Shown piece by piece: positions 6,001 through 50,642 of a stretch of 64,000 nucleotides of DNA; within the stretch, counting starts at the first letter, position 1, and each line of letters starts with the position of its first letter. The position numbers and the translations under genes were made by a program. Location: IMG/VR virus record IMGVR_UViG_3300025913_000020. The stretch is one strand, 5' to 3'. The stretch is from a virus (lineage: Duplodnaviria > Heunggongvirae > Uroviricota > Caudoviricetes). The notes under the pieces were generated by a model. It worked only from the letters and a program-made list of their open reading frames with translations. It was not told the DNA's origin and did not search any database.

Positions 6001-6020
6001 AAAAATTGTTTACAATTCAC
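6001..6020. promoter_or_regulatory. palindromic AT-rich promoter/operator motif AAAAATTGTTTACAATTCAC in divergent region (serves minus operon 5983 and plus gene 6045)
   Basis: 60-nt divergent intergenic; core TGTTTACA palindrome flanked by A-run and T-run; family member (see other sites). Confidence 0.55.
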
Positions 6021-6044
6021 TTATAGAGCAATACTCTTAAGTCA

Positions 6045-6266
6045 ATGAATGCTTTGACCACCGGAATGTTCATTCGCGTGCGCGCTGACCATGAGAATAC
6101 GGCACGCGCTGGCCTCGACGGAATGGTCATGGCCAACAGCCCAGAGGGCGAATCCATGGTCGGTCTGTTCTTCTGGTGTGACCGTCATAACAATTTTCAG
6201 CGCTGCTACTGCGTCGGCACCGAAGCCTGGGACAAAAGCGAACTGGACTTTGCGACGGTTGAATAA
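6045..6266 (+). CDS. hypothetical protein (73 aa)
   Basis: first gene of plus block; ATG 26 nt after motif; no SD. Confidence 0.45.
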   Translation: MNALTTGMFIRVRADHENTARAGLDGMVMANSPEGESMVGLFFWCDRHNNFQRCYCVGTEAWDKSELDFATVE

Positions 6267-6280
6267 AAGTTTACAATTTC
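6265..6280 (+). promoter_or_regulatory. partial motif copy AAAAGTTTACAATTTC ending 1 nt before ATG 6282
   Basis: half-site GTTTACAATTT between stop of 6045..6266 and start of 6282..6707. Confidence 0.3.
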
Positions 6281-6281
6281 G

Positions 6282-6707
6282 ATGAAACCTATTCCTGATC
6301 ACCTGATCCATAATACTGCCGCGCTACTCGAACGAACCTTGTTCGCGGTCGAGGCTACGAGCTTTGAGCAATTTTGCCTGTGGGAACAGCACGCCAAAGG
6401 CAGCTTGCACCGGATTCACCGTGAGCTGCACTGGGAGCAGATGAGTCCTGGCTGGATGGAACAGGTCGGTAAAATCGGCAGGTGTCCCTGCATGATAGAA
6501 CTCTCCTGGGCCGAGATCGACGGTCAGATTATTTTGTTCTGGCATCAGTGCAGTGCAGTGACCGATTCACGCCAGGCCGAAGCCTGGTTCGAAAAGAATT
6601 TTAAGAAGAAGTGGGATGGCGGCACACGTCGCGCCATGATCGACGCCCAGAACTTCGGCCACTGCCTGTCAGCGATCAAAGAAGCCAATTTAGCCACCCA
6701 TGCCTGA
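6282..6707 (+). CDS. hypothetical protein (141 aa)
   Basis: complete ORF, operon context. Confidence 0.5.
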   Translation: MKPIPDHLIHNTAALLERTLFAVEATSFEQFCLWEQHAKGSLHRIHRELHWEQMSPGWMEQVGKIGRCPCMIELSWAEIDGQIILFWHQCSAVTDSRQAEAWFEKNFKKKWDGGTRRAMIDAQNFGHCLSAIKEANLATHA

Positions 6708-6918
6708 ATCCTCTGAAATCGTTCAATACGAATACGCGCTCGAAGTCAGAGACGCGCTCGGTCACTGGTGCCGCCTGCGCGATACCAAACCGTCTTTGAG
6801 GCTGATGCAACTGCATCTGGAAGTGATCTGGGGCAAGAACATTCCGAAGGACGGCATTCGTATCATCGAGCTGAAATCTACCGAGCGCATCCTGCAACGT
6901 GAGCTGTGGACCGTCTAG
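6700..6918 (+). CDS. hypothetical protein (72 aa)
   Basis: 8-nt overlap with upstream gene. Confidence 0.4.
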   Translation: MPESSEIVQYEYALEVRDALGHWCRLRDTKPSLRLMQLHLEVIWGKNIPKDGIRIIELKSTERILQRELWTV

Positions 6919-7129
6919 CATGAGCACCGAGGCAAATCCATCTATTCCCATGCAGCTCGAAGCCGCCATGAAGCAGGCCGGGCTGAATCGGCTCGACATG
7001 GCGCTGGCGCTGAAGACGCATCCGTCTGCGGTTACGAAATGGCTGAAGCCCGAGTCCAACATGACCATCAGCACGCTGAAGCGGTTCTGCGACGTGCTCA
7101 GCCTGGATGTAAAACTGATCAAACTATGA
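6899..7129 (+). CDS. XRE-family helix-turn-helix transcriptional regulator
   Basis: AGLNRLDMALALKTHPSAVTKWLKPESNMTISTLKRFCDVLSLD fits Cro/C1-type HTH; true start may be internal Met at 6920. Confidence 0.6.
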   Translation: MSCGPSSMSTEANPSIPMQLEAAMKQAGLNRLDMALALKTHPSAVTKWLKPESNMTISTLKRFCDVLSLDVKLIKL

Positions 7130-7347
7130 GAAAATTTCTATTTGTGCTCAGCGCGACTGCTGTCAAACCAGGTGAGACGTTCGGACCCGTCAACACGAAC
7201 ATCACCAAGGAAATCCACGGCCTGCTCCCCAATGAAAAAGAGCTGTACCAGGTGCGCTACCAGTTCTTCGATTTCCTGTCCAAGAAGGGCTACTCGCTGC
7301 TCATGGACCAGGTTATCATCCTGGGCTTTTACCAGATCGAGTCATGA
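7126..7347 (+). CDS. hypothetical protein (73 aa)
   Basis: start at MRKFLFVLSA, ATGA overlap with stop 7129; N-terminal extension of track ORF 7039..7347 rejected. Confidence 0.45.
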   Translation: MRKFLFVLSATAVKPGETFGPVNTNITKEIHGLLPNEKELYQVRYQFFDFLSKKGYSLLMDQVIILGFYQIES

Positions 7348-7736
7348 TTTACACGCCCGAGCACATCACTCATCTCGAAGACAACGAAGTGTTTGTCTTT
7401 GGATCGAATCGAGCTGGCCGCCACGGCATGGGCGCGGCGCTCACGGCCAAGGAGCTGTTCGAAGCTGAGTATGGCGTCGGCGAAGGTCCTACGGGCCAGT
7501 GCTACGCGCTGCCGACGAAAGGCCGGTCGTTGCGCACGCTGACCCTCGCCGAGATCGACGGCTCTATCCAGAGATTTCTGGAACATGCCACGGCGCACCC
7601 GAAGAAGACATTCCTGGTGACCAAGATCGGTTGCGGTCTCGCTGGTTATGCGCCCGAGGTCATCGGTCGTCTGTTCTTCAAGTCCGGCGCGCTGCCTGCC
7701 AACGTTGTGCTACCAAAAGAATTCCATACGCAATGA
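7344..7736 (+). CDS. Rossmann-like protein, tentatively SLOG/LOG-DprA-superfamily-like
   Basis: 130 aa; strand-glycine motif VFVFGSNRAGRHGMGAA and later GCGLAG loop; ATGA overlap upstream. Confidence 0.5.
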   Translation: MIYTPEHITHLEDNEVFVFGSNRAGRHGMGAALTAKELFEAEYGVGEGPTGQCYALPTKGRSLRTLTLAEIDGSIQRFLEHATAHPKKTFLVTKIGCGLAGYAPEVIGRLFFKSGALPANVVLPKEFHTQ

Positions 7737-7960
7737 GCTTTGTGCTGCCAGACGTAATCTTTTATTTTCCGCCGGTACCTGTGCGCCGTGGGATGCGTGA
7801 CTACGCCCACGATCAGACCGTAAACAGATGGGCATGGGATCGTGGCTGGCTACCCAAAGACGCGAAAGGCCAGATCGAAGTTTATCCTGGTCAGCGTGCT
7901 GAAGTATGGGGCGGTATCGCCAGGAATTGCCAGCAATACCTGGCACTTAAGTTTGTATGA
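7733..7960 (+). CDS. hypothetical protein (75 aa)
   Basis: internal ATG MSFVLPDV with ATGA overlap to 7736 stop. Confidence 0.4.
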   Translation: MSFVLPDVIFYFPPVPVRRGMRDYAHDQTVNRWAWDRGWLPKDAKGQIEVYPGQRAEVWGGIARNCQQYLALKFV

Positions 7961-8211
7961 TCCAGCTTGATGGCAAAATTGATGAGAAGCGACTGCGGCA
8001 ATTCGCCAGCCAGGTGAAGCATATTCCGCCGCACGCGTTGCACGTTATCCACGAGATGATGTGCAAGGATCAGAGTCCTGAGTTTTATCACGGCCAGATG
8101 GCGGCGCTCCAGTTTGCTCATCAGCTCATGGCAGGAACACAGAGTCAGAACACGGTGGGCGCGACGATGGCTGTGGTCGCCAAGCACATCGTGGACAACG
8201 GATGGTGGTGA
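7957..8211 (+). CDS. hypothetical protein (84 aa)
   Basis: ATGA overlap with 7960. Confidence 0.45.
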   Translation: MIQLDGKIDEKRLRQFASQVKHIPPHALHVIHEMMCKDQSPEFYHGQMAALQFAHQLMAGTQSQNTVGATMAVVAKHIVDNGWW

Positions 8212-8434
8212 TATGAATAACACGAGCAATTACATCGTTTGTCCCAACTGCCACGGTAAACTCCGTGAAGGAGAGGCCAAGTTTCAGCAGGTGGCGGGCG
8301 AGCCTCTTTTCGATATGACCTGCCTGAAGTGCAGCCATCGCTGGCGAGCACATCATCGTGATTTCAAACGCGATCTTTCTACGGACCCGAGCCGTAATCC
8401 ATTCAACCCAGTCAACATCACACCCAGGTTTTAA
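8212..8434 (+). CDS. zinc-ribbon protein (CPNC...CLKC)
   Basis: 74 aa from MNNTSNYIVCPNCHGK; two CxxC pairs. Confidence 0.45.
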
Positions 8435-8435
8435 T

Positions 8436-8771
8436 ATGAGTGACGATGGACCAGCAGATTTAATGAAGCTCGGCAAGCACGTGGACGAGTTCATCGAGGA
8501 GATGGAAGGACCGGCCACGCCTGAAATGGGCAATGTGGTGTACGCTCGATGGTTCTTCTTGCTTGCCCGTCTTCCGGCCTTCATGCAGATGCAGTTCGAG
8601 CCGTGGATTCAGCAATACAAACTGTTCTGCACCTTTGAAGGAAAGCGGTACCGTTGCACCGGTGCCAGCCGGATGGGTGACGTGTGGCTGGCCAAGGACT
8701 TCGAGCGCAGGCAAGGGTATGACTTGCGCGTTGATCTCGTCAAATGCACCCACTGGAGCGGCACGCCATGA
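8436..8771 (+). CDS. hypothetical protein (111 aa)
   Basis: start MSDDGPADLMKLGK. Confidence 0.45.
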   Translation: MSDDGPADLMKLGKHVDEFIEEMEGPATPEMGNVVYARWFFLLARLPAFMQMQFEPWIQQYKLFCTFEGKRYRCTGASRMGDVWLAKDFERRQGYDLRVDLVKCTHWSGTP

Positions 8772-9166
8772 CCTGTGACCAATGCGGAAAAGAATTTGAC
8801 CCGGCCAAGCTCGATGAAGTGATGTTTCACGCCGGAGACCACACGCCCATCGTCGCGACCGGAATCGAAGGCCACCAGGTGGAGCAGCCGGACACCGACG
8901 ATCTGCTCAGTGTTCAGCATCTGTCCCGGTCTCATCGAACAACGATGACGCAGAACCAGCGTAAAGAACTGGTTCGCATTCTTTCGATGGCGTTCGAAAA
9001 AGACAAACCGTACCTGACTCTCGAACAGCTCGCGGGAATGAATGATCGACAGGTTGGTCTCGCGTGGCTGCGGATGTGCGACTATATCACTGAAGGCCAG
9101 TATCAGCGTGAGTTTGAAGCGTGCGTGGGTTTACCTGTTTTTCTAACCAGAGATCGACATGAGTGA
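8768..9166 (+). CDS. hypothetical zinc-binding protein
   Basis: start MTCDQCGKEF, ATGA overlap with 8771. Confidence 0.45.
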   Translation: MTCDQCGKEFDPAKLDEVMFHAGDHTPIVATGIEGHQVEQPDTDDLLSVQHLSRSHRTTMTQNQRKELVRILSMAFEKDKPYLTLEQLAGMNDRQVGLAWLRMCDYITEGQYQREFEACVGLPVFLTRDRHE

Positions 9167-9914: not shown

Positions 9915-10054
9915 AACCGCCGAAGCCAAAGCATCATCCTTGGCGGGGTTGGGTGCCGATCACATCCGCCAGAAGACCTAACGAGAAAGACCACGCCAAG
10001 CATTTGGCGGAGGCGAAGGAGCGCGCCAAGAAGTTCAAGCGCACTAGGGCTTGA
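9911..10054 (+). CDS. small basic protein (47 aa)
   Basis: below track cutoff; MKPPKPKHHPWRGW...; ATGA overlap with 9914. Confidence 0.25.
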   Translation: MKPPKPKHHPWRGWVPITSARRPNEKDHAKHLAEAKERAKKFKRTRA

Positions 10055-10712: not shown

Positions 10713-10719
10713 GCCCTAT

Positions 10720-12763: not shown

Positions 12764-13229
12764 AGATTTTGGTGGTTGAGAGTCCCTGTACATTTTGCAA
12801 AAGCGCGATCTCGCATTTGGCGCGCCGGGCAGCTTGGACCTCTTTCTTGTCCAGCGTCTCCAGTGTATAATCTCCGCCCTTGAACCAAACGTCCGGCTTG
12901 AATTCGGTGATCCATTTGGTGATGCGTGACTCGTTAAAGATGAAAACCATGCTCACCATTTCCAGAGCGGCAACTACTGTGGCGCGCTGGATGTCCGGGT
13001 TGATAGGGCGGCCTGGACCCTTTAGGCGTTTTACCGACGTGTCACTATTCAGCAGTACGATCAGGTGTGAGCACTTCGAACGGGCGTGAGTCAGGTAGTG
13101 GATGTGACCGGCGTGAAGAATATCGAAGCATCCGTTTGTGACGCCGATCCTGCCAGACCGGTGCAGCTTTATCCATTCCTTGGCCTCTTTCAGGGTGCCG
13201 ATGATCTTGTGCGCGCCGTCGTAACTCAT
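12735..13229 (-). CDS. cytidylyltransferase-fold nucleotidyltransferase, RfaE/HldE domain-II-like (sugar-phosphate adenylyl/cytidylyltransferase)
   Basis: IGVTNGCFDILHAGHIHYL = (T/H)xGH nucleotidyltransferase motif as in HldE C-domain; LLNSDTSVKRLKGPGRPINP matches RfaE-II. Confidence 0.7.
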   Translation of the reverse strand: MSYDGAHKIIGTLKEAKEWIKLHRSGRIGVTNGCFDILHAGHIHYLTHARSKCSHLIVLLNSDTSVKRLKGPGRPINPDIQRATVVAALEMVSMVFIFNESRITKWITEFKPDVWFKGGDYTLETLDKKEVQAARRAKCEIALLQNVQGLSTTKIYERIKKTLG

Positions 13230-13235
13230 GACCAG

Positions 13236-13254
13236 ATTTTGTTTACAATTTCTG
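13236..13254 (-). promoter_or_regulatory. motif copy ATTTTGTTTACAATTTCTG 8 nt upstream of ATG 13229
   Basis: between stop of 13261..14061 and start of 12735..13229. Confidence 0.45.
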
Positions 13255-13260
13255 TTACCG

Positions 13261-14061
13261 TCAATCTTTTCCTTCGATGATGCGCTGAAGCTCCTGCTGG
13301 CCGCTGTGGGAATCCAAGCAGCCGTTGTAGTAAGGTCCGTTCACGAAACCGATTTCATCGTGCGTGATTCCCGCCTGCTCGGTGGTTGCTTCGTACCAGT
13401 TTCCCAGAAGTTCCTTGCGGTAGGTGACGCAAAGCCGGGCGACTGCTTCACGTGCTTTGTAAAGTTTGATGGCGAGCGGGCGGCGGGTGGCAGCGGCAGC
13501 GTTTTCCCATCCTTTGACGATCTCAGGTTTAACTTCAGACCACTGGGGCAGCGGCGCGCCGCTGATGGCTGACTTCCAGCCAGTGGTTTCACAGTAGGCT
13601 TCGTAGGCGAGTTGTCCGGGCGTTTTTTCCATAATTTTATCGGGTTGGGTTTTACTTTCTTCTTTTAATATCTTGCGGGCTTCGGTTTCCCCGGACGCTG
13701 TCAGTGCCACACGTTGAGGATTGCCGTTGATGAAATGCCGTGATACTTCGATAAGACCGCGTCGTCGTAGCGCCTTCAGGGTGTTCATCTGAGCCACGAA
13801 GGTAGGACTCTGGCCCTCGGCCTCATCTGGATGGACAAAGCATGGGTTGTTGTACTGCGTTTTTAGCCAGGAATGTTGCACCAGCACACCACCGCAAAGG
13901 TGCATTTTGATTAACGCGGCGTCCATCAGTTCAGAGGTAGCGTCCCCGAGCATGGTCGGCACCGTTTCCTTTTTCTTGAATGTTCTGGAGCTGCTTTGCA
14001 GGACTGCTTTTTTATCAGCTTCGAATTCGGCTTTTATTTTGGATTGGAAGTCAGTTTTCAT
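13261..14061 (-). CDS. hypothetical protein (266 aa)
   Basis: complete ORF; no motif recognised. Confidence 0.5.
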   Translation of the reverse strand: MKTDFQSKIKAEFEADKKAVLQSSSRTFKKKETVPTMLGDATSELMDAALIKMHLCGGVLVQHSWLKTQYNNPCFVHPDEAEGQSPTFVAQMNTLKALRRRGLIEVSRHFINGNPQRVALTASGETEARKILKEESKTQPDKIMEKTPGQLAYEAYCETTGWKSAISGAPLPQWSEVKPEIVKGWENAAAATRRPLAIKLYKAREAVARLCVTYRKELLGNWYEATTEQAGITHDEIGFVNGPYYNGCLDSHSGQQELQRIIEGKD

Positions 14062-22207: not shown

Positions 22208-22815
22208 TCGCCCAGGATTTCGTCGATAGCGTCGAGATGGCCTTGAATCTTGCTGCGCGCCTCGCGGAACTTTTCCAGGATGACCTGGTCTTTGCTCCGG
22301 CGATACATCAGCGCCATCATAGCTAAATACGACAGTTCAGGTGAGTTGCAGACCTTGCGGGCAAAAGCTTCGAATTGATTCAGGGCGTCGGCGCGTTTGG
22401 GAGTGGGCGTTGGGCCGTGCGCTTGCTCGAACCCATTGGCAACCTTCTCACGGCTTTCGGCTAAATTAAGAGTCGGCTGGCTGTCCGTGGACGACGCTCG
22501 GTTCCTCAACCCGTTCGTCCATGAAGTGGGCCAGCCGATATTTGCAGAATCATTGTCTTTATTGGCCAGCCACCAGGTGGCGTCACTGATCCCACGCAGG
22601 GACGCGGTGATGTGGCCAGGGAGATCGCGCCTCCACTCCGTGAATTTAGTGGTGCGCGTTTTCGAGGCGAAACTTATTTGAGCTTCGCTGGCACCGACGA
22701 GAATGATAAACGAAGTTGTCGGAAAGGGCGGCGGATTAAGCTCGCTGACATCACACTTGACCAGGGGTTCGTGGGGTTCCGAAGTTGCCTTCAAAAGTGA
22801 CTGCGTTGTATCCAT
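22204..22815 (-). CDS. hypothetical protein (203 aa)
   Basis: ATGA overlap downstream; motif 6 nt upstream of ATG. Confidence 0.5.
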   Translation of the reverse strand: MDTTQSLLKATSEPHEPLVKCDVSELNPPPFPTTSFIILVGASEAQISFASKTRTTKFTEWRRDLPGHITASLRGISDATWWLANKDNDSANIGWPTSWTNGLRNRASSTDSQPTLNLAESREKVANGFEQAHGPTPTPKRADALNQFEAFARKVCNSPELSYLAMMALMYRRSKDQVILEKFREARSKIQGHLDAIDEILGE

Positions 22816-22820
22816 ACTCG

Positions 22821-22837
22821 AAAAAGTTTACATTTTC
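22821..22837 (-). promoter_or_regulatory. motif copy AAAAAGTTTACATTTTC, 5 nt from ATG 22815
   Basis: intergenic after 22862..23188. Confidence 0.45.
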
Positions 22838-22861
22838 TTCGTGGACCGCGCAACCCCAAAA

Positions 22862-23622: not shown

Positions 23623-23777
23623 TTGGCGGCCTTGGGTTCGAATTTAACGCGCAGATCATCACGAAATCGACCACACCATTGGCAGGTGCTGCCTTGCCAC
23701 CGATGGCGACTTCCCACCTGTTTGCCGGTGCGCGGATTGCGACCGTAACAGGGCCGTAGATGATAAATCGTCTTCAT
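23619..23777 (-). CDS. small zinc-ribbon protein (52 aa)
   Basis: start MKTIYHLRPCYGRNPRTGK 29 nt after motif; track ORF start 23816 is inside motif. Confidence 0.4.
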   Translation of the reverse strand: MKTIYHLRPCYGRNPRTGKQVGSRHRWQGSTCQWCGRFRDDLRVKFEPKAAK

Positions 23778-23804
23778 CCCAGTAAGCTTGTCCCGATGAC
23801 CGAC

Positions 23805-23826
23805 TTTTGTAAACAATCTTGTTTAC
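23805..23826 (-). promoter_or_regulatory. motif TTTTGTAAACAATC plus adjacent inverted half-copy GTTTAC
   Basis: intergenic; overlaps stop of 23823..24080. Confidence 0.5.
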
Positions 23827-25798: not shown

Positions 25799-26361
25799 GC
25801 GCGTCCGGGGATGGAGCGTTCATGGCGTTCGAAGGACATTGGACTGGGCTTGTCCTCCATGTCCTTTTTCTTCTGCGCTTCGGTCATCTTTTTGATGGCC
25901 GGTCCGGTGAGACGGCGGATGTCAAAATCATGGCAGCGGACCATGCCGCCGCTTTTATCGCGCTCGCCCTGGGGTTGAACGTTGACGTGTAGGCATCCGC
26001 TCATGAAAAGGACGAGGCCAATCGCGGTGCCCTTAAATCCGGTCGCGGTGTCTTCGACCTGCGTGCCGAGAATGTGCAGAGGGAGGTCACTGGGAAGTGG
26101 AATAACTTCACCGCCCTTGATGCGCGTGGGCACGATCCAGTGCATCTTGATCGGTTCGCGTGTTTCTCTGTCCAGGCCCTTCGGCTGGAAGCAATAGCTG
26201 TGGGTGAAGTCCATTCCGATTTCCATCAGCGTGATCATGCCTTTCATGTCGCTGGCGGTATCGGTGACCATGCCGCCGAGTTTGAACATCGTGGCAGGAG
26301 TGACTGTGACTGGAGTTTCAGGAGTTTTAGGAGTTTTGGTGGTTGATGGTTTTGGAGGCAT
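25795..26361 (-). CDS. hypothetical protein (188 aa), Thr/Pro-rich N-terminus
   Basis: ATG directly abuts motif 26363-26376. Confidence 0.5.
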   Translation of the reverse strand: MPPKPSTTKTPKTPETPVTVTPATMFKLGGMVTDTASDMKGMITLMEIGMDFTHSYCFQPKGLDRETREPIKMHWIVPTRIKGGEVIPLPSDLPLHILGTQVEDTATGFKGTAIGLVLFMSGCLHVNVQPQGERDKSGGMVRCHDFDIRRLTGPAIKKMTEAQKKKDMEDKPSPMSFERHERSIPGRA

Positions 26362-26362
26362 A

Positions 26363-26417
26363 ATGTTTACAATTTTGAGATGCTGTTATTGGCTTTATAG
26401 ATTTGATTGTCAACAAT
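26363..26417 (-). promoter_or_regulatory. two palindromes ATGTTTACAATTTT and ATTGTCAACAATTTTT in 58-nt intergenic region
   Basis: second copy has CA centre (ATTGT-CA-ACAAT). Confidence 0.5.
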
Positions 26418-26419
26418 TT

Positions 26420-28411: not shown

Positions 28412-28791
28412 GCTACTTCGAGATCAAATAGTGTAACGGCAAATCTGCTTATGGCGTAATTGATATTCCGGTCGATCACGAGGAGGCGCTTGGCCACCGG
28501 GTGATGCCCGTTTATGTGAACTCTGTTTTGGTCGTCCAACTCCATCGCGAGTTCGTATCCCATCTCGCGAGCTTTTTCCATGCACCGGAGCCACACCATC
28601 TGGGAGGCAATCGGGTTGGCAGTCGGATAAAAAAGTTTTACGTGTTGAAATTTCCAGCCGCTGTCAACGCGGCTGTACCAGTCGTCATTCCACAAGGTCC
28701 AGCCCATGACCTTTTCAGCAATCACTTTGTCCATTTTTCGATTAGGGCTGTCTTCCACAGGCTTGCTAAAATCTAAGGTCAAAACTGGCAT
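28408..28791 (-). CDS. hypothetical protein (127 aa)
   Basis: start MPVLTLDF 28 nt after motif; track ORF start 28830 is the motif translated as MFTI. Confidence 0.45.
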   Translation of the reverse strand: MPVLTLDFSKPVEDSPNRKMDKVIAEKVMGWTLWNDDWYSRVDSGWKFQHVKLFYPTANPIASQMVWLRCMEKAREMGYELAMELDDQNRVHINGHHPVAKRLLVIDRNINYAISRFAVTLFDLEVA

Positions 28792-28816
28792 GTCAGAGAT
28801 ATTTACCTGACGTGAC

Positions 28817-28839
28817 GAAATTGTAAACAATTTTTATTT
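28817..28839 (-). promoter_or_regulatory. motif GAAATTGTAAACAATTTTTATTT
   Basis: intergenic; perfect 12-bp palindrome ATTGTAAACAAT. Confidence 0.55.
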
Positions 28840-30789: not shown

Positions 30790-31018
30790 ACTTTTGGAGC
30801 TTCCCGAACGTCTGGAGCTTTTCCGCGTCCTCGTCCGAGATTTCGAAACCAAATTCTTCCTCAATGGCCATGAGGACTTCAACGGCGTCGAGGGAGTCCG
30901 CTCCGAGATCGTCAATGAAGTTGGTTTCGGGTTTGAGCTGCGATTCATCGACGCTAAGCTGCTCGACGATGACTTCTTTAAGGCGCTGTTCGACAGTTTT
31001 ATTAGTAGAATTTGACAT
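30764..31018 (-). CDS. acpP: acyl carrier protein
   Basis: 84 aa; [17 protein letters not shown] = ACP phosphopantetheine-attachment (DSL) motif; acidic helical composition. Confidence 0.8.
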
Positions 31019-31022
31019 AGGT

Positions 31023-31040
31023 GAAAATGTTTACGTTTTG
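31023..31040 (-). promoter_or_regulatory. motif GAAAATGTTTACGTTTTG 5 nt upstream of ACP ATG
   Basis: intergenic 31019-31060. Confidence 0.45.
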
Positions 31041-31060
31041 TCTTTCGGTTGGTCAAGCGC

Positions 31061-32472: not shown

Positions 32473-32796
32473 TTAGCTTTTAGGGGTGAAGAACTGAGTC
32501 TGGGAAAAGTGGCAATGGCCGATGCGCCCTGGCCTGCCGACCGGACAGCCGAGCGTCCGGGCATGGTGTTCGCCCTTTACCTTTTTGCAGTGTTTGCACT
32601 TCACTGGCTTCGGGGCCAGGACACGAGGCTGAACGAGCGCGGTAGTGACTTCCTCAGCATCGCCGTAGTCGCCATTCTCTACAAATCTGACGAAGCAGTT
32701 GGTGCGTCCCATGCGGTAACTGACGAAAACACCGTTGCCACGGTTGGCGTGGGTGACGAGGTCGCCCGTCACGAATTGATGCTTCTTTTTTGCCAT
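32473..32796 (-). CDS. hypothetical protein (107 aa) with CKHC motif
   Basis: ATG MAKKKHQ 32 nt after motif; track uses upstream TTG. Confidence 0.45.
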   Translation of the reverse strand: MAKKKHQFVTGDLVTHANRGNGVFVSYRMGRTNCFVRFVENGDYGDAEEVTTALVQPRVLAPKPVKCKHCKKVKGEHHARTLGCPVGRPGRIGHCHFSQTQFFTPKS

Positions 32797-32820
32797 GCAC
32801 AATACACTTACACTATTGAC

Positions 32821-32844
32821 GTAAAATTGTAAACATTTTTTATT
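32821..32844 (-). promoter_or_regulatory. motif GTAAAATTGTAAACATTTTTTATT
   Basis: between terminator 32852-32880 and gene start 32796. Confidence 0.55.
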
Positions 32845-32851
32845 ACGAAAA

Positions 32852-32890
32852 AAGCGGCCTGGAATTGCTCCCAGGCCGCTTGGTTTAATC
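32852..32890 (-). terminator. Rho-independent terminator (10-bp GC stem AGCGGCCTGG/CCAGGCCGCT, loop ~9 nt, then UUUUUUCGUAAUAAAAAA on minus transcript)
   Basis: immediately after stop of 32899..33918. Confidence 0.7.
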
Positions 32891-35914: not shown

Positions 35915-35933
35915 GGTTAATGTAAACAAAAGG
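35915..35933 (-). promoter_or_regulatory. motif GGTTAATGTAAACAAAAGG 26 nt upstream of ATG 35895
   Basis: intergenic. Confidence 0.45.
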
Positions 35934-36394: not shown

Positions 36395-36416
36395 GGAAAA
36401 TGTAAACAATTTACTG
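36395..36416 (-). promoter_or_regulatory. motif GGAAAATGTAAACAATTTACTG
   Basis: intergenic 36340-36434. Confidence 0.5.
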
Positions 36417-38221: not shown

Positions 38222-38447
38222 GCTCTCGCATCAAAGTTTCTACGCGTTCCATGAATTTGGCTTCGTTGGCGGCAGCTTCCATGTGATCACGCCGGGTGAA
38301 AAAATCCATGCCGAAAATCTGGGTCATCGCTGATTTATCCGAACCCTCTCCTTCCAGGGATTCACGTTTGGCTTTCCAGTAGGCGTAGTCCTCGCGGGCC
38401 TTCCTGAGCTGGCGGGCTTTGAGCCATTTGACGAATCTTTCGATCAT
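38217..38447 (-). CDS. hypothetical protein (76 aa)
   Basis: leaderless promoter upstream. Confidence 0.45.
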   Translation of the reverse strand: MIERFVKWLKARQLRKAREDYAYWKAKRESLEGEGSDKSAMTQIFGMDFFTRRDHMEAAANEAKFMERVETLMREQ

Positions 38448-38481
38448 GTGAAAAATGTAAACAATTTATTGTTGGTGTCAA
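38448..38481 (-). promoter_or_regulatory. sigma70-like promoter on minus strand: TTGACA(38481-38476)-16 nt-TACATT(38459-38454)-6 nt-ATG(38447); -10 lies inside palindromic motif
   Basis: hexamers and spacing read directly; predicts leaderless transcript. Confidence 0.55.
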
Positions 38482-41125: not shown

Positions 41126-41553
41126 TCCTTTTCTCCCTTGATCACCGAGTCATTGAATTCGTTCGTCGTCAGCGCACCTTTGGCAAGCTGCACCAGGAGC
41201 GACTTGCCGCGCTCAATGCCTGCTTCGTGCGACAGTTGGATCGCCTCCTGGATGGCCTTAAAGAGATCGTTGAGCGCCTGGCGTTGTTCCGGCGTGGCAA
41301 TGCGGATGGCCGCGTCCAAGCCGCGTGGGTAAAAGGTCCCGTAATCCGGGACGATGGGACTCACGTCACGTTCAGCGTTGGCTGAAAGCGTGCGCTTATC
41401 CACCTGGGGGAACATCAGCTCGATGATGCGGTAGTAGGCCGCCGTCGCTTTCGGGTAAAGCGTGCCGTCGCCAGAGATAAACCTGGGACGGAAGTGCGCC
41501 TGGGCAACCCAGAAGGAGTTTTCAGGAGCTTTTGGTTTGCGACGAGTGCCCAT
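41122..41553 (-). CDS. hypothetical protein (143 aa)
   Basis: ATGA overlap; motif 5 nt upstream. Confidence 0.5.
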   Translation of the reverse strand: MGTRRKPKAPENSFWVAQAHFRPRFISGDGTLYPKATAAYYRIIELMFPQVDKRTLSANAERDVSPIVPDYGTFYPRGLDAAIRIATPEQRQALNDLFKAIQEAIQLSHEAGIERGKSLLVQLAKGALTTNEFNDSVIKGEKE

Positions 41554-41556
41554 AAT

Positions 41557-41577
41557 CGAAAATGTTTACAAATTCTG
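41557..41577 (-). promoter_or_regulatory. motif CGAAAATGTTTACAAATTCTG with TTGATT 17 nt upstream
   Basis: intergenic 41554-41587. Confidence 0.5.
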
Positions 41578-41587
41578 TCAGACTCAA

Positions 41588-42103
41588 TCAATGAAAATAT
41601 CCGATATTAGAAATTCTCCTGCCGCCTTTCGGGGTGCGCCCGAAACGACTGAGGAATTCGAACTTGATGCTGTCTGACTCTGCCCTGTCCATCTCTGGCG
41701 TGGATCGGCTGCCGAGTGCTTCGAACACGGCGCACTGCGCCTGCATGTCTCGCACTTCGTCCCGGCCATCCACCTGAAATTTATCAGAAGGTTTCTGCGC
41801 GTAGCACTTGGGATCAGAGCAACCGGAGCTGAAGAAGTATTCGAAAGCCACGAGGAACGATGTCGCGCTGAGATCAGTCAGGTTCTCGACAAATTCCAGG
41901 AAGCAGGCTGCGTGCTCCGGGCTGTAATCCTTTTTGATGCCGTCATGGATCATCTCCAGGTGGGTTGGACCGAGGTCGCCGCGCTTGGGTCCCCGCCCGG
42001 CGTAATAGCCAGAGCGCGCCAGCAACCGGCCAGAGCACCAGGCGTCAATGGCTTCGTAAAAGCTGGCCGGTGGATTCGTGGGTTTGGGTAGTTCTTTTTT
42101 CAT
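41588..42103 (-). CDS. hypothetical protein (171 aa)
   Basis: complete ORF; small hairpin TTTCGGG-gtgcg-CCCGAAA in 3-prime end. Confidence 0.45.
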   Translation of the reverse strand: MKKELPKPTNPPASFYEAIDAWCSGRLLARSGYYAGRGPKRGDLGPTHLEMIHDGIKKDYSPEHAACFLEFVENLTDLSATSFLVAFEYFFSSGCSDPKCYAQKPSDKFQVDGRDEVRDMQAQCAVFEALGSRSTPEMDRAESDSIKFEFLSRFGRTPKGGRRISNIGYFH

Positions 42104-42325: not shown

Positions 42326-43786
42326 TCACAGCTTTCGGTCGCGGATCGCCTGGGCCAGTTTGGAACCAATCATGGTCAGTGCCTTGTAGTACTCCTCGCT
42401 CAGGTGATTCTCGCTGTACTCGTGGCCGAACTCGTGGATGATCAGGTCATCAATTTCCTGCTGGTTCGTCTCACGATTGAACCAGTCGTAGCCGAGCCGA
42501 CCGACGTTGAACACCAGGGTCCCGCTCGGGCCGTAAGTGGCACCGTAGGGCCAGGTTGCTTCCGCCGCAAAGACCACGCTGATACTTTTGCCGAGCACGA
42601 TCCGGGCGAACGCTTTGGCGTAAGTTTCCACGTGCTGCATCCCGACCGTTACTTCCTTGACCAGCTTCAATGGCGCGCCGTCCGGGCTGTAGGGCTTGGG
42701 TGAAGGCGTGACCTGACCGGCAGGCAGCATCGCGCCCACGCTCTTGACGTTACTCCAGGCGGCCTTGCTGAGCTGATTGCCGGTGACCACCGTGAAGCCA
42801 GCGGCAGCGGCACGGCTGTTGGATTCGATGTCGGACGGATCGTAGATGACGCGTTTCTCACCGAAGCGCTGAGTCATGCACGCCTCGACCGCTGCGGGTG
42901 CGATGTCCGGTGAAGTCAAAGCTTCAGCGGCCCAGGACGTGTTGGCATCCTCGCTGTCGATGATTGTTGACATGTTATTCACAGCGGCTACTGCGAGCTG
43001 TTTTCGGAAGGAAGGCAGGACTTCTTCACGGTCCATCGTGAGCGGAACTTTCTGACCCACGTTGAAGATGTATTTGCCGTCGATCTCGCACACGGGTATC
43101 CCCATCTCGTAGATGGCAGCCGGGCAGCCTTCGCCGGGAACAGCGCGGTAAACTTCCACATTCGTCAGCCGGGTGGTTTTGACCATGTTGCCTTCACCGT
43201 CAGCGACCTCAGTGGCCAGGGCAGCTTTGAATCGCGTCATGCCCGGCGCACTGACGAGGGCTTTGCCGTTGATAGTCGTGATGATGGTCTTTTCGCCAAC
43301 CGGAGGAATCAGCCGAGCGCAGGCATTTACAATCTGGTCGATCTCGTCCTTTTTCACGCGAATCATCATTGAGATCACCGAACCCTTTTCCCGCTTCAAT
43401 CCTGGCGACCGTTGCCTGCCGTGTTTGGTAAAATTGACGGTGCCGGTGGTTGTGGAGACGCAGGCTTCTGAAGCGAGGGCCAGCACCAGCTTCTCGCCGA
43501 GGTTGAACCGACCGCGCTTTTCCGGGTTGGCCTTTTTCTTGGACTCAGCGAACAAGGTGTAGGCGTGCGTGAGGTCAGAGAATCCATCCGGCGCATCGTC
43601 CGTCACACGCAGCATCGCCTGGCCAGGATACCCCGGCACCGACTCAAGCGTGACATCGACCTGAGTGACGCCTTCTTCGTCCCAGGCATTCTGGATCAGT
43701 TCAAAGATAATGAACTCCTTGCCCTTGCGCTGGAGGATTTTCGCCAGCCCGTCTTTGTCTATTTCAAACCATGATGAAGTTTTCAT
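42326..43786 (-). CDS. GHKL-type (Bergerat-fold) ATPase fused to C-terminal HExxHxxxxxH zinc-metallopeptidase-like motif
   Basis: N-box ELIQNAWDE, G1 DDAPDGFSD, G2 GRFNLGEK; C-terminal LIIHEFGHEYSENH; real start MKTSSWFEIDKDG 7 nt after -10. Confidence 0.6.
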   Translation of the reverse strand: MKTSSWFEIDKDGLAKILQRKGKEFIIFELIQNAWDEEGVTQVDVTLESVPGYPGQAMLRVTDDAPDGFSDLTHAYTLFAESKKKANPEKRGRFNLGEKLVLALASEACVSTTTGTVNFTKHGRQRSPGLKREKGSVISMMIRVKKDEIDQIVNACARLIPPVGEKTIITTINGKALVSAPGMTRFKAALATEVADGEGNMVKTTRLTNVEVYRAVPGEGCPAAIYEMGIPVCEIDGKYIFNVGQKVPLTMDREEVLPSFRKQLAVAAVNNMSTIIDSEDANTSWAAEALTSPDIAPAAVEACMTQRFGEKRVIYDPSDIESNSRAAAAGFTVVTGNQLSKAAWSNVKSVGAMLPAGQVTPSPKPYSPDGAPLKLVKEVTVGMQHVETYAKAFARIVLGKSISVVFAAEATWPYGATYGPSGTLVFNVGRLGYDWFNRETNQQEIDDLIIHEFGHEYSENHLSEEYYKALTMIGSKLAQAIRDRKL

Positions 43787-43793
43787 ACTCAGG

Positions 43794-43834
43794 ATTGTAA
43801 ACAATTACAGTCCAATGTCAATACACAAAGTGTA
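43794..43834 (-). promoter_or_regulatory. sigma70-like promoter on minus strand: TTGACA(43821-43816)-16 nt-TACAAT(43799-43794)-7 nt-ATG(43786), plus upstream element TCAATACACAAAGTGTA
   Basis: read directly; second element recurs at 46141-46160. Confidence 0.55.
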
Positions 43835-43847
43835 TTTATTTTACCCT

Positions 43848-45108: not shown

Positions 45109-46109
45109 TATGCTGGCGGGTTGAAGTTTTCGTAAACAAATCGTTCAGTGTCGTCCACAGATAGTCCGGCTGCGGTAGCTGCTTTCCAGAGAGCCGAGCT
45201 GCGTTGGTCTTCTGCGCTGATGTCGCGGCGTTCGCGGAGACCTGGATTGGCTGCGAAGATCGCTTCCCATCTGGCAACGTCTTCGGGGTTGTGCTTCGTA
45301 ATGGTGAATTTGGCCGGGCGTTTCCAGAAGCCGAATAGCTCGTCGTTTTTGCTTGGCTCGAACGTGGCGGTAAATTCCACTTCATCACCCTTGCGCGGGA
45401 ACATCACCTGGCCAGCGGCGTTGTATTCAGGAGCATTGCCGAAGGCGCGCACACCGTTGCCGAAGTCGATGGTGAGCTTGGTGACCATTTTCCGAGGATC
45501 GAAGCCAGGAATAGTTTTGGTGGACAGGACAGTGCCTTTGACTGTGTGGCGGCCACTGAGAGCTTTGCCGGTCGCGGAGGCACGGCGCGCTTCGTCTTTT
45601 TCGCGGATGCTTTCGAGGGTGGTGATCTGCTTCTCGGACAGCTCACCGAAACGGCGCATCTTTTCCAGCATGTCCTTGGCGATCTTGGGAGCACGGGCCA
45701 GGCGGCACCAGCCGATGATGCTCATCGCCTCGGGGTGCGCGGTCAAGAAATCAGCTTCGCGCTTATTGCAAGCCAGGCGCTCGGCGAGGGCCACAGTGTG
45801 CTGTGCGATCATTCTGTCGAACCGGCGCAGATTTTCCACCTTGGCGGCACAGTCACGGCCAACCCAGTAGCCGGTGCCCGTGGGCGCGTGGACAATGGCG
45901 CAGGCGTACTTGAGAGTGTGGCCGCAACAGCCGCAGCGATTGGGTTGGTTTTGAGCTTTGAAAGTCTGCCAGAGCGGTTCGTCGATGACATCCATCTCAG
46001 CCTCGACTGATCCATTTTCTCCTGCGTCCGGGTTGAAGCCGAGGACCACGCAGACAGCAACGAGCCGGAGTTCGTTCACCGGCAGTCCTTTAATAGATTC
46101 GTTTGTCAT
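45108..46109 (-). CDS. hypothetical protein (333 aa) with CGCCGH zinc cluster
   Basis: leaderless promoter upstream. Confidence 0.5.
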   Translation of the reverse strand: MTNESIKGLPVNELRLVAVCVVLGFNPDAGENGSVEAEMDVIDEPLWQTFKAQNQPNRCGCCGHTLKYACAIVHAPTGTGYWVGRDCAAKVENLRRFDRMIAQHTVALAERLACNKREADFLTAHPEAMSIIGWCRLARAPKIAKDMLEKMRRFGELSEKQITTLESIREKDEARRASATGKALSGRHTVKGTVLSTKTIPGFDPRKMVTKLTIDFGNGVRAFGNAPEYNAAGQVMFPRKGDEVEFTATFEPSKNDELFGFWKRPAKFTITKHNPEDVARWEAIFAANPGLRERRDISAEDQRSSALWKAATAAGLSVDDTERFVYENFNPPA

Positions 46110-46116
46110 GCCAGAA

Positions 46117-46160
46117 ATGTAAACGAAATAGAATTGTTGTCAATACCCAAAGTGTAAATA
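46117..46160 (-). promoter_or_regulatory. sigma70-like promoter on minus strand: TTGACA(46144-46139)-16 nt-TACATT(46122-46117)-6/7 nt-ATG(46109), plus element TCAATACCCAAAGTGTAAAT
   Basis: read directly (coordinates +/-1). Confidence 0.5.
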
Positions 46161-46236
46161 GTGAGAAATTTAATACCTCGTTGTAAGTGGCCTAACGACC
46201 GTAGTTAATGCGTGGTAATAGTGGATCGGGTGGGTG

Positions 46237-46273
46237 CCCGGCCCTCTTAGGGTTGGAGGGCCGGGTTTGTTGG
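46237..46273 (+). terminator. plus-strand intrinsic-terminator-like hairpin CCCGGCCCTC-ttagggttg-GAGGGCCGGG followed by TTTGTTGG
   Basis: in 165-nt intergenic region; no annotated plus gene upstream, so may end a small RNA. Confidence 0.4.
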
Positions 46274-46274
46274 A

Positions 46275-48481: not shown

Positions 48482-48890
48482 TTTTACGTTTGCCCGTAGC
48501 TGCTGCGATTATGGGCAGAAGCTCGTCATGATATTTTAGAACGTAATCACGATGCTTTTGATCCAATTTTTCGGCGCGCCCACGCATGTAGCCCAGTATC
48601 CAGAGGACAAAATCAATCTGTTCCTTGGTTAAACTTACGTTGGGGTGCTCGTGGCGAAGATCGCGGTCAATACCCAAGCTCTCAATTCCCAGATTCTTCG
48701 CCAGGATGTCGCGCATTCGAACGGCGGCATCGGCATAGACGAAGTCTGATCCAACAGTGGTGAAGTTAAAAACGCCATCGCGGTGCCAGGTCACCAGCAC
48801 GGTTACGTCCTGACCGTGCTTTGCGGCGAGGGCGCGCAGTGTTTCAATGGGTACCGGTACCGGCGTCTTTTTCCATTTTGGAATCGGCAT
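48384..48890 (-). CDS. hypothetical protein with Arg/Pro-rich tail
   Basis: start MPIPKWKK; overlaps neighbours in other frames. Confidence 0.35.
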   Translation of the reverse strand: MPIPKWKKTPVPVPIETLRALAAKHGQDVTVLVTWHRDGVFNFTTVGSDFVYADAAVRMRDILAKNLGIESLGIDRDLRHEHPNVSLTKEQIDFVLWILGYMRGRAEKLDQKHRDYVLKYHDELLPIIAAATGKRKNEEKSLSAASGGPNPGGRRNRAPRRPRPPRKS

Positions 48891-49149
48891 AAACTTGAGC
48901 GAGTTGTCGGTTGGCTTCTTCAATAGTTTTTCGAGTCGCGGGGGTCTCATGCTCCGGGTAGCAGTTCACGTAGATGCGGTCGTAAACGCGCCAGAATTTT
49001 CCACCGAAACCAAGCGTGCCGATGAAGCGCCACTCGGTCGGGTGATTCCTCTTGCTCTGATTGTACACAAAGCTGTCGCGATCACCTTCAGAGGCCCCGC
49101 AGACCTTTACCAGGATGTCGTAGATGCGGTTGAGAGTGGCTTCTGACAC
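48844..49149 (-). CDS. hypothetical protein (101 aa)
   Basis: complete ORF. Confidence 0.4.
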   Translation of the reverse strand: MSEATLNRIYDILVKVCGASEGDRDSFVYNQSKRNHPTEWRFIGTLGFGGKFWRVYDRIYVNCYPEHETPATRKTIEEANRQLAQVYADSKMEKDAGTGTH

Positions 49150-49150
49150 G

Positions 49151-49858
49151 TTATCCCCAGTAAACCAGCGGGTCTCTCCAGCTCGGGAACTTCTGGGTCA
49201 GCCACACATTGGCCGCTTCTTTGGCCTCATCAATGGCTTTGGATCGCGCCATAGCTTCTTCGCGTTTGTCCCAGTTCGCTTCCGGCAATGGGTCGGATGA
49301 GTGCAGGACTTCTTTAGTAGCGGTGTCGATGACATCCACTCGCACGAATTTTGAGCTGACGCCCATTTTGTCTGCTTTATGCTCGCCGGTGGCGCGGTCG
49401 TAAATCTCCTCCTTCTTTTCGTCGAGGTAGGTGCTTCTGAAAGTGTAGCGCGGATTGAGACCGATGTGTGCGTTGTAATCGTAAAAAGCGGCTTTGAAGA
49501 AAATGCTACCGCGTTTGCGACCTTTGTCGTCCAGCAGATCACTCCACATGGAATGGCCGCTCGGACGTTTGGTCCAGCCTTTTGGGAAACTGCATTTCCA
49601 GAAAATACGGTCGGTCTTTTCGCCGAAGGTGAAGCCCAGTTTTTCGAAGTCCTTCACGGTGCAACCCTGCATGTCGATGGGCAGTGTCTCAAGCTTGGCC
49701 TGGGCCTGCTGGCCTTCCCGCTCCTGGGCTTCGATGCCGCCCGGCGTGGCAGCACGAATAGAGTTTGGTATATCTCCGACAGCGGCGGCGGCCATGGACG
49801 CCATGTTCGGTCCGCCCCGATGGACGTGGGTGAATCCTCGTTCTTTGCGTGTTTTCAT
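49151..49858 (-). CDS. hypothetical protein (235 aa)
   Basis: complete ORF. Confidence 0.5.
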   Translation of the reverse strand: MKTRKERGFTHVHRGGPNMASMAAAAVGDIPNSIRAATPGGIEAQEREGQQAQAKLETLPIDMQGCTVKDFEKLGFTFGEKTDRIFWKCSFPKGWTKRPSGHSMWSDLLDDKGRKRGSIFFKAAFYDYNAHIGLNPRYTFRSTYLDEKKEEIYDRATGEHKADKMGVSSKFVRVDVIDTATKEVLHSSDPLPEANWDKREEAMARSKAIDEAKEAANVWLTQKFPSWRDPLVYWG

Positions 49859-49892
49859 TGATTGGTTGGTTAGGTGGTTAGGTGGTTAATTC

Positions 49893-50321
49893 TTACTCAA
49901 ACGCGCCGCTGGCCTGTAATTGCAGGGCGGCAGCAGCTCCTCTCATGAGCATGTCCACATCTTCGGCGGTGGCTTTGCCGTTTGTCCATTCGGACAGATT
50001 GACCAGCATTTTGCGATACTGGCGATCACTGTAATCCTTGCACCACTTCTCGAAGACTTCCTGGAAGTTGGCGCTGGTACGCAATGGCGTGAAGTGTTCG
50101 CCGAGGTCGGCGGCCATCAAATCGAGTTTTGTCTTGTAGTCGGTGTCGGGCAGCAAGAGAGTTTTTGTCTCCCGCGCCATGACCTCATCCAGGACATCTT
50201 GCGGGTCTCGCGACGGGTCTTTTGCTTTGGCAGTTTCCAGGAAGATGTCATTTATTTTTCCGGCCTTCTCCATCACTTCTTCCAACTGCCTCATTGCTTT
50301 GAGTTTATTTAGTGCGCTCAT
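49893..50321 (-). CDS. hypothetical helical protein (142 aa)
   Basis: complete ORF. Confidence 0.5.
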   Translation of the reverse strand: MSALNKLKAMRQLEEVMEKAGKINDIFLETAKAKDPSRDPQDVLDEVMARETKTLLLPDTDYKTKLDLMAADLGEHFTPLRTSANFQEVFEKWCKDYSDRQYRKMLVNLSEWTNGKATAEDVDMLMRGAAAALQLQASGAFE

Positions 50322-50614
50322 GGTTTGTTTAATCGGTCAACTCGCCAGACTTGGTCCTGTCCACAATAGAAAGTCCAGTCATTGGCTCCTACATAAGAAC
50401 CGTGATCGTCGCGGCCTATAACCACCACGGCGATATGCGTCTTCCAGGCGTTGCTTGGGACAGGCAGCGTCTGACCTGGAGGTAAATTGAGGCAGAGGAG
50501 CTGATTCTCTGAAATGACATCGAGATTAGCGGTCGTGTTATTGACCACGGTCAACTGCTGCGAGGCACAGCCGCACAACAGGGACAAGAAGATGACCATC
50601 TTCACCAGCTTCAT
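50318..50614 (-). CDS. small secreted protein (possible lipoprotein)
   Basis: MKLVKMVIFLSLLCGCASQQ signal peptide. Confidence 0.5.
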   Translation of the reverse strand: MKLVKMVIFLSLLCGCASQQLTVVNNTTANLDVISENQLLCLNLPPGQTLPVPSNAWKTHIAVVVIGRDDHGSYVGANDWTFYCGQDQVWRVDRLNKP

Positions 50615-50617
50615 TGA

Positions 50618-50642
50618 GTGAAAAATGTAAACAATTTTTTGC
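50618..50642. promoter_or_regulatory. motif GTGAAAAATGTAAACAATTTTTTGC in divergent region
   Basis: 7 nt from minus ATG 50614; 38 nt from plus ATG 50676. Confidence 0.55.

Follow-up and report, generated by a model that had tools for sequence, protein, structure and literature searches.

An AT-rich dyad box at transcription-unit starts of an uncultured jumbo-phage-like genome is probably the core of a sigma-70-type promoter set

A 64,000-nucleotide (nt) stretch of viral DNA (IMG/VR record IMGVR_UViG_3300025913_000020, Caudoviricetes; the whole 64-kb stretch is called the window below) carries a short AT-rich box with a GTWWAC core in front of many of its genes. The question raised by this box is what reads it. 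A first-pass annotation had listed 17 copies and proposed a palindromic element that serves as a phage-specific promoter, as an operator for a phage regulator, or as both. We consider it likely that the box forms the core of a set of sigma-70-type promoters that belong to the phage and are read by host RNA polymerase, and a possible second, regulatory layer is weighed below.

The sequences listed for the 17 copies were present at all 17 coordinates. The word TGTWWACA occurs 16 times in the window versus 1.56 +/- 1.31 expected, with none of 100 dinucleotide shuffles reaching 16, and the flanked pattern WWWNGTWWACNWWW occurs 19 times versus 0.23 expected, a count that no shuffle reached. Intergenic spacers, which by crude gene calls make up approximately 13% of the window, hold 14-15 of the 19 flanked matches. 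In a position weight matrix scan, 30 of 39 strand hits lay 0-70 nt upstream of a called start versus 9.8% of random positions (binomial p ~5e-23), although this test of start proximity is partly circular because the matrix was trained on the 16 intergenic sites themselves. The specificity of the GTWWAC core rules out generic intergenic AT-richness as an explanation, and a terminator or RNA hairpin was rejected on fold energies of -0.2 to -1.7 kcal/mol, no better than those of shuffled sequences. A literature search with the motif words returned nothing relevant.

Fifteen of the 17 listed sites are good copies and two are poor. Site 33949 is false because a stop codon, that of gene 33955-34179, sits inside its GTAAAC (G-TAA-AC); it has one GC-rich flank and is self-complementary at 4/16 positions. 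Site 26406 has the core GTCAAC and reads TTGTTGACAAT on the gene strand, a TTGACA-type box. Stop codons in the G-TAA-AC context occur at 23821, 30762, 33953 and 48240 and raise raw GTWWAC counts. The list had omitted one intergenic copy, with its core at 6269, and weaker intragenic copies at 2861, 5126, 11014, 11495, 47055, 62535 and 63453. The genome, described as GC-rich, is only moderately so (55% GC in the window). The same crude gene caller places genes leftward from 219 to 5983, rightward from 6045 to 9626 and leftward from approximately 10044 to 63473. The proposal that the box marks transcription-unit starts was borne out, in that copies stand correctly oriented before first genes, are syntenic in relatives and in one case follow directly after a terminator hairpin (32881-32852). 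Two spacing classes do exist, but the measured values differ from the 3-8 and 25-40 nt first given: the end of GTWWAC lies 9-12 nt from the start codon at 9 sites and 26-32 nt at 5 sites, 4 of these at exactly 31-32 nt, with outliers at 3, 7 and 62 nt.

Relatives were obtained by fetching the DNA around homologues of a 623-amino-acid (aa) protein encoded at 39254-41125, the identity of which serves as a marker. This protein is recorded on a contig of 245,196 bp and its homologues lie on contigs of 230-255 kb, and the window is therefore part of an uncultured jumbo-phage-like genome of approximately 245 kb. The first-pass annotation had suggested looking for the motif in related phages; contigs L002, L004 and L005 (80%, 58% and 54% marker identity, respectively) carry the box at the same junctions and in the same orientation, and the 6008 junction is kept in a further two, L009 and L010.

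The proposed reading follows from the composition of the box. Its forward form, TTGTTTACAAT, includes both a -35-like TTTACA and a -10-like TACAAT or TACATT, and both uses seem to occur in the window. At approximately 8 sites the box would serve as the -10 element, 16-17 bp downstream of a TTGACA-like -35, with TAAACA as the hexamer in inverted copies; at 4-5 sites it would serve as the -35 element, with a separate xAnnnT hexamer 17-18 bp downstream. Either way, the start codon would lie 6-9 nt past the -10. The two spacing classes would then arise because the box acts either as a -10 or as a -35, and with start codons so close to the -10, the first gene of each unit would be leaderless or nearly so. 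The reader is presumably the host sigma-70 holoenzyme. The idea of a phage-specific promoter thus survives in part: the box is most likely promoter DNA, but of an ordinary sigma-70 type, with canonical TTGACA -35 boxes and AT-rich upstream tracts, and it does not resemble a promoter specific to a phage polymerase.

Four forward copies, all on the minus strand, are candidates for the -10 role. Within 38445..38481, TTGACA (38481-38476) is followed after 16 nt by TACATT (38459-38454) and after a further 6 nt by ATG 38447, the 16-bp box occupying 38452-38467; this architecture is kept in the orthologues at L002 2825-2859 and L005 12704-12742. The region 43784..43837 combines an upstream box, ATACACTTT, with TTGACA (43821-43816), N16, TACAAT (43799-43794), 7 nt and ATG 43786 of a 486-aa gene, a start that agrees with the pipeline gene call in the identical contig L001; its orthologue is L005 6588-6624. 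The layout of 46107..46159 (TTTACACTTT as the upstream box, TTGACA 46143-46138, N16, TACATT 46121-46116, 6 nt, ATG 46109 of a 333-aa gene) is identical in L004 6877-6912 and L005 4908-4946. At 50612..50651, TTGACG (50651-50646), N16, TACATT (50629-50624) and 9 nt lead to ATG 50614, at a junction with a small plus-strand gene (50676-50936). The promoters of the 333-aa and 486-aa genes share an extra box, (T)TTACACTTT, approximately 5-6 nt before the -35 (46149-46158 and 43826-43834, minus strand), which is kept in orthologues (L004 ~6861-6870; L005 ~4892-4901 and 6572-6581). It may mark a promoter sub-class or an activator site.

Inverted copies, likewise on the minus strand, would fill the same role with a spacer of 17 nt. 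At 41551..41591, TTGATT (41591-41586), N17, TAAACA (41568-41563) and 9 nt precede ATG 41553 and head an operon of the 143-aa and 623-aa genes; orientation and layout are shared with L005 (TTGATT-N17-TAAACA-N9-ATG at 9030), and L004 has an inverted copy at 9922. At 31016..31056, TTGACC (31056-31051), N17, TAAACA (31033-31028) and 9 nt precede ATG 31018 of an acyl-carrier-protein gene, with the orthologue at L002 11296 reading TTGACC-N17-TAAACA-N10-ATG. At 22813..22853 the elements are TTGCGC (22853-22848), N17, TAAACT (22830-22825), 9 nt and ATG 22815. For the inverted box 13236-13251, the best fit within 13227..13264 is TTGACG (13264-13259), N17, CAAAAT (13241-13236), 6 nt and ATG 13229 of a cytidylyltransferase gene. 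Inverted copies as antisense promoters were rejected, as that strand has no -35, and the gene-strand -35 and the ATG spacing are kept in relatives.

What ties the two orientations together is the position of the -35 box, which lies 13 nt from the core where this reads GTTTAC and 16 nt where it reads GTAAAC. Owing to this orientation-dependent distance, the TA dinucleotide always falls 16-17 nt from the -35, as would be expected of positions -12/-11 with a sigma-70-type reader. The 3-nt difference led us to reject an origin of both orientations by in-place mutation of an ancestral TGTATACA. Among the 11 forward copies of the window, 4 have TTGAC[AG] at a distance of exactly 19-20 nt before the core G, as do 10 of 22 once orthologues are included, on the gene strand only.

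The -35 role is proposed for four copies (6008, 23809, 28823 and 32829) which lack a -35 box upstream, have an AT-rich tract before TTTACA and are followed by ATG exactly 31-32 nt after the core. On the plus strand, 6003..6047 comprises AAATAAAAATTG, then TTTACA (6009-6014), N17, TACTCT (6032-6037), 7 nt and ATG 6045; it heads the plus-strand block containing the XRE gene, and its opposite strand faces a GTG start at 5983. At this junction L009 and L010 retain TTTACA-N17-TAATCT-N7-ATG despite substitutions in the spacer. The other three are on the minus strand: TTTACA (23813-23808), N17, CAAGCT, 7 nt and ATG 23777 within 23775..23819; TTTACA (28827-28822), N17, AAATAT, 7 nt and ATG 28791 within 28789..28833, which is also the best dyad copy (AAATTGTTTACAATTT, 14/16 self-complementary); and, within 32794..32881, the terminator hairpin mentioned above followed by TTTACA (32833-32828), N18, AAGTGT, 7 nt and ATG 32796, with identical spacing in the orthologue L002 9299-9337. 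The distance from core to ATG stays constant while the intervening sequence drifts (31 nt for the window together with L009 and L010; 32 nt for the window together with L002).

Several minus-strand copies are less regular. The copy at 36397..36412 lies 62 nt upstream of ATG 36339, and its orthologues at L002 5753 and L004 13893 read TTTACA-N14-TGATAAC, which favours a -35 role. The copy at 35917..35932 lies 26 nt upstream of ATG 35895, and since this distance is 19 nt at L002 6215, the unit likely has a short leader. The pair within 26360..26419 consists of the TTGACA-type variant AAATTGTTGACAATC (26404-26419) and an inverted copy (26360-26375), which cannot be the -10 for ATG 26361 because it ends 3 nt before that codon. 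On the plus strand, the copy at 6264..6279 lies 7 nt before ATG 6282 and is absent from the orthologous junction of L010, where the genes overlap as ATGA. The spacer of approximately 15-20 bp that holds it (6264-6281) is missing at L010 ~365-372, which suggests that boxes are gained and lost through small indels.

When the 31-51 kb region was scanned independently for the sigma-70 consensus, the top four matches, at 11, 10, 10 and 9 of 12 positions, were the motif sites 38457, 43797, 46119 and 50627 (listed here by coordinate), and the very best match (11/12) was the region 43784..43837. The window holds 12 instances of the full pattern TT[GT]AC[AG]-N16-18-xAnnn[TA]-N5-9-[AG]TG that lead into an open reading frame of 50 codons or more, versus 1.2 in shuffles (maximum 4); 9 of these instances coincide with motif sites at called starts, and in L002-L010 approximately 20 of 25 matches fall on pipeline gene starts. 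Across the sites set out above, a -35 was found as TTGACA or TTGACG with N16 (4 forward), as TTGACC, TTGATT, TTGCGC or TTGACG with N17 (4 inverted) and as the box's own TTTACA with N17-18 (4 sites). The -10 hexamers TACAAT, TACATT, TACTCT, AAATAT, CAAGCT and AAGTGT have A as the second and T as the sixth base, whereas in TAAACA of inverted copies and TATACA of the distant relative L008 the sixth base is A.

The distance to the start codon is that expected of leaderless genes, whose published signature is a TANNNT approximately 12 nt before the start codon (PMC3160421). Counted from the first T of the -10 to the start codon, this distance is 12, 13, 12 and 15 nt for the forward set of four, 15 nt for three inverted sites, 12 nt for 13241 and 13 nt for the four sites with the box as -35, all within the criterion of 10-16 nt. 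A Shine-Dalgarno (SD) core (GGAG, GAGG or AGGA at -18 to -4) precedes 7 of 92 genes, equal to the background of 9%, and gene-upstream regions are A-rich in its place. Leaderless first genes are consistent with a genome that makes no use of SD sequences, and the two together point to an unusual translation regime in the host. As a separate observation at start codons, TAGTTARRR occurs 5 times versus 0.83 expected (16483-16491, 18730-18738, 51306-51314 and 60865-60873 on the minus strand; 63507-63515 on the plus strand), always ends 1-2 nt before a start codon and sometimes includes the stop of the upstream gene.

Relatives at 36-50% marker identity retain the AT-rich upstream tract and TTGACA-N17-(-10 box)-N6-9-ATG, with different -10 boxes. 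L006 and L007 (48-50% identity) have the AT-rich tract, TTGACA-N17, then GATATT, GATACT or TAGGCT, N6-9 and ATG. In L008 (36% identity) the -10 box is TGTATACA, found as TTGACG/TTTACA-N16-18-TATACA-N6-8-ATG and forming the perfect 10-bp palindrome TTGTATACAA, with G preceding TATACA in 29 of 29 cases. Since the layout persists in these distant relatives despite a changed -10 box, the promoters would be a clade-wide housekeeping type abutting start codons. A DNA scan of a viral contig collection for TTGACA-N14-GTTTACAWTT gave single matches on unrelated contigs and was uninformative.

Sigma-70 bipartite promoters of this kind have precedents. The phage lambda cI gene transcribed from PRM is a leaderless gene behind a housekeeping-type promoter. 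In Actinobacteria and Deinococcus-Thermus, leaderless genes are driven by sigma-70/sigma-A bipartite promoters (Zheng et al. 2011, PMC3160421). The sites described here resemble such promoters in their TTGACA-like -35, spacer of 16-18 bp, A at position 2 of the -10, first T approximately 12-15 nt before the ATG and missing SD; they differ in that the -10 is unusually stereotyped and set within a 16-bp dyad, the box doubles as a -35, and the SD is absent even at internal genes. An extended -10 promoter was rejected, the TG being out of register (G at -15 in TTGTTTACAAT, at -13 in TGTAAACA) and absent before the second hexamer in all of the top four matches. Promoters of the Bacteroidota -33/-7 type have TTTG and then TAnnTTTG approximately 19-21 bp downstream; TTG-N19-TACATTTT at some copies fits this type, and TACAATCC, the inverted copies and the TATACAnGG and GATATTCT of relatives do not.

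A number of points weigh against the sigma-70 promoter model. All transcription starts are inferred from sequence, and the gene calls in the window come from our own crude caller. The TAAACA of inverted copies lacks the usual T at -7, and their start codon lies 9 nt away, implying a leader of 2-3 nt. Neither role suits three copies: the one at 26365 is immediately next to its ATG, that at 6269 falls 4 nt short, and that at 36402 stands 62 nt off. Good copies also lie inside genes, at 47055 and 62535 in the window, and approximately 10 copies of TGTATACA lie inside L008 genes. Sigma-70 contacts do not account for the conserved G, for the TGT...ACA arms or for the A-tract/T-tract dyad that extends beyond them, and they leave unexplained that a 14-16 bp consensus particular to the box persists in the -35 as well as the -10 position. 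Lastly, 64 of approximately 245 kb were read, which leaves room for a phage-encoded polymerase or sigma factor.

The dyad is a reason to consider a second reader. The claim of a palindromic element holds at the level of the consensus, which is the 16-bp AAAWTGTW|WACAWTTT in both gene orientations, but the core is never truly palindromic, its centre always being TT or AA. Individual copies are self-complementary at 10-14 of 16 positions, several at 4-8, and the centre is never symmetric. It is possible, and compatible with the promoter model, that this dyad is the site of a dimeric phage regulator, a repressor or an activator, which would act on the -10 or -35 and time expression; we advance this operator tentatively. 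The consensus AAAWT-GTWWAC-AWTTT is symmetric in both orientations, the value of 14 in copies at 10-14/16 is the ceiling given a TT/AA centre, and the flanks are kept whether the box stands at -10 or at -35. L008 offers its perfect palindrome TTGTATACAA, the invariant G before TATACA (29/29) and approximately 10 intragenic copies without a -35, and in the window the copy at 26365 sits between a TTGACA-type box and the ATG, a roadblock position. Against an operator, the left flank is often lost in orthologous promoters (43797 versus L005 6608; 46119 versus L004 and L005), with only GTTTACAWT kept, and L006 and L007 do without such a box. AT-rich tracts also surround the -10 boxes of strong phage promoters that have no operator.

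The cognate protein is likewise only hypothetical. A helix-turn-helix gene is present in the window, and the XRE-type protein at 6899..7129 on the plus strand had been named as the candidate binder; the domain is real (Pfam HTH_26, E = 5e-5), but the comparison with relatives gave no support to its role as binder: homologues were detectable only at 74% identity or more, in relatives 74-88% identical, in a search of low sensitivity with a 76-aa query, while the box reaches far wider, to 54-58% marker identity. The same annotation had the box serving both directions at 6005 and 50621; neither site has a -35 at the position expected for the second direction, and such use may still occur. Within the spacer of the promoter of the XRE operon, L009 53-83 (orthologous to 6015-6044 of the window) contains the inverted repeat TTGCA-TTATAG-TGCAA, which is degenerate in the window (TTCAC...AGCAA). 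This TTGCA-N6-TGCAA repeat could be the operator of the XRE protein itself and would be a more conventional candidate than the box.

Short boxes shared by many promoters are familiar from other large phages. In P1, C1 operators are scattered genome-wide and a late-promoter palindrome is bound by Lpa; P2 and P4 carry the Ogr dyad TGT-N12-ACA, and T4 the MotA box at -30. By analogy only, our box is like these in being one short box at many promoters that overlaps or replaces core elements, some of the known examples being dyad-symmetric. Unlike them, it overlaps the -10 or -35 and does not lie at -22, -30 or -55, its sequence is unrelated, and its protein is hypothetical.

The asymmetric centre has a plausible cause in palindrome avoidance. 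GTATAC and GTTAAC are absent from the 64 kb, and the box centre is therefore only TT or AA. Altogether, 37 of 64 palindromic hexamers, each expected 8-28 times, are absent from the window, versus 67 of 4032 non-palindromic ones. L008 tolerates GTATAC (19 copies) and carries the symmetric box. A more far-reaching and rather doubtful proposal joins these facts: a single dyad box of 14-16 bp would serve interchangeably as -35 or -10 and as the landing site of a dimeric phage master regulator, with its centre forced from symmetric AT (TTGTATACAA in L008) to TT/AA by genome-wide purging of 6-bp palindromes. If this were true, anti-restriction selection would have remodelled how promoters and operators are encoded across an entire phage lineage. 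The link between the dyad with its TT/AA centre and the missing hexamers gives a testable lead on regulation and on the limits that restriction avoidance may set on regulatory DNA. Avoidance of 6-bp palindromes is extreme and all-or-none in the window and in L002-L008, with a lineage-specific tolerated set: GCGCGC occurs 52 times in the window and not at all in L004-L008, GTATAC and GTCGAC occur only in L008, and GTTAAC, with 12 copies in L007 and 2 in L004, is frequent in L007 alone. Among tetramers of the window, CTAG occurs 14 times versus 242 expected and TATA 27 times versus 157.

Recognition by a phage-encoded RNA polymerase or sigma factor, in the style of T7, phiKZ or AR9, with the spacing classes reflecting leaderless transcripts and leaders of approximately 21 nt, appears unlikely. 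The 16-bp block is highly stereotyped, many copies lack an upstream TTGACA, genomes of approximately 245 kb frequently encode their own polymerases, and a -10 that varies between lineages would suit co-evolution with a phage factor. Yet a canonical TTGACA stands at fixed, orientation-dependent spacing that orthologues keep, a -35 is present at half of the sites, and the copies without one upstream have a -10-like hexamer 17-18 nt downstream, with ATG 7 nt later. In L006 and L007 the corresponding position, immediately before the 623-aa gene homologue, is taken by plain sigma-70 consensus promoters, and Pfam and PHROGs searches of approximately 70 window proteins, from 64 of the approximately 245 kb, found neither a polymerase nor a sigma factor, and XRE as the sole DNA-binding domain.

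Known promoters of such polymerases differ as well. The AR9 early promoter is AAATATATATTAT-N6-G, the AR9 late promoter AACA-N6-TA/G and the phiKZ late promoter TATG; none has a -35, AR9 leaders span 26-491 nt, and leaderless transcripts were not found in phiKZ (PMC5312081; PMC8244752). The box shares with them an AT-rich, highly conserved short block before many genes of a genome above 200 kb, and its ACA recalls the short AACA block upstream of AR9 late starts (PMC5312081), but the N6 spacing of AR9 is unmatched (8 nt here), and the canonical -35 boxes and the start codons abutting the promoter set it apart. Judged by sequence, the box does not match AR9 or phiKZ polymerase promoters.

It is highly improbable that the box acts in RNA as an AU-rich substitute for the SD, such as a landing site for ribosomal protein S1 near start codons: 9 copies do stop 3-10 nt short of a start codon, where an SD would lie, in a genome without SD use, but both orientations occur, a DNA dyad is meaningless in RNA, most genes (operon-internal) lack the box, 4 copies lie exactly 31-32 nt upstream of the start codon, TTGACA stands at promoter spacing, a box used as -10 would not be transcribed, and no stable fold forms.

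The sigma-70 promoter model would provide a usable description, comprising -35, spacing, -10 and leaderless start, for an uncultured phage clade of approximately 245 kb with almost no annotated genes. It would fix start codons 43786, 28791, 23777 and 32796 and define transcription units. It implies reliance on host RNA polymerase and SD-independent, largely leaderless translation, which would narrow the search for the host. The box is a useful annotation and not a novel type of system.

Searches for the phage itself gave little. A near-identity search of deposited phage genomes with 12 kb of the window gave no match, and tblastn with the 623-aa protein against them gave matches at 18-21% identity only; a close relative is therefore absent among deposited phages. 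Peptide-pattern scans for the 623-aa protein in viral and genome contig collections gave no matches, and tRNA and Rfam scans found none. Host inference through the GDP-mannose dehydratase gene failed, its product being approximately 65% identical to proteins of many phyla. L006 is NCBI GCA_053484395.1, contig JBMNYN010000001.1 (243,594 bp), deposited as contig 1 of a metagenome-assembled genome labelled Azonexus sp.; it is probably a mis-binned phage genome, and in our own estimation a betaproteobacterial host is doubtful, given the missing SD sequences.

Two stretches of approximately 350 bp each, 46110-46460 and 48482-48843, have no gene in the pipeline annotation of L001 and no Rfam match; the former contains a GC-rich hairpin and then the promoter at 46119. 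Most of the window proteins scanned have no family match in Pfam or PHROGs, the recognisable ones being tail-spike-like, large terminase-like, SPFH, DNA methylase, sugar-nucleotide enzymes and acyl carrier protein. Auxiliary genes lie within 10044-14888, 19537-21485, 30764-31018 and 34469-35674 and encode TylF and FkbM methyltransferases, a cytidylyltransferase, an N6/N4 DNA methylase, a GDP-mannose 4,6-dehydratase with an epimerase, the acyl carrier protein and an SPFH/Band 7 protein.

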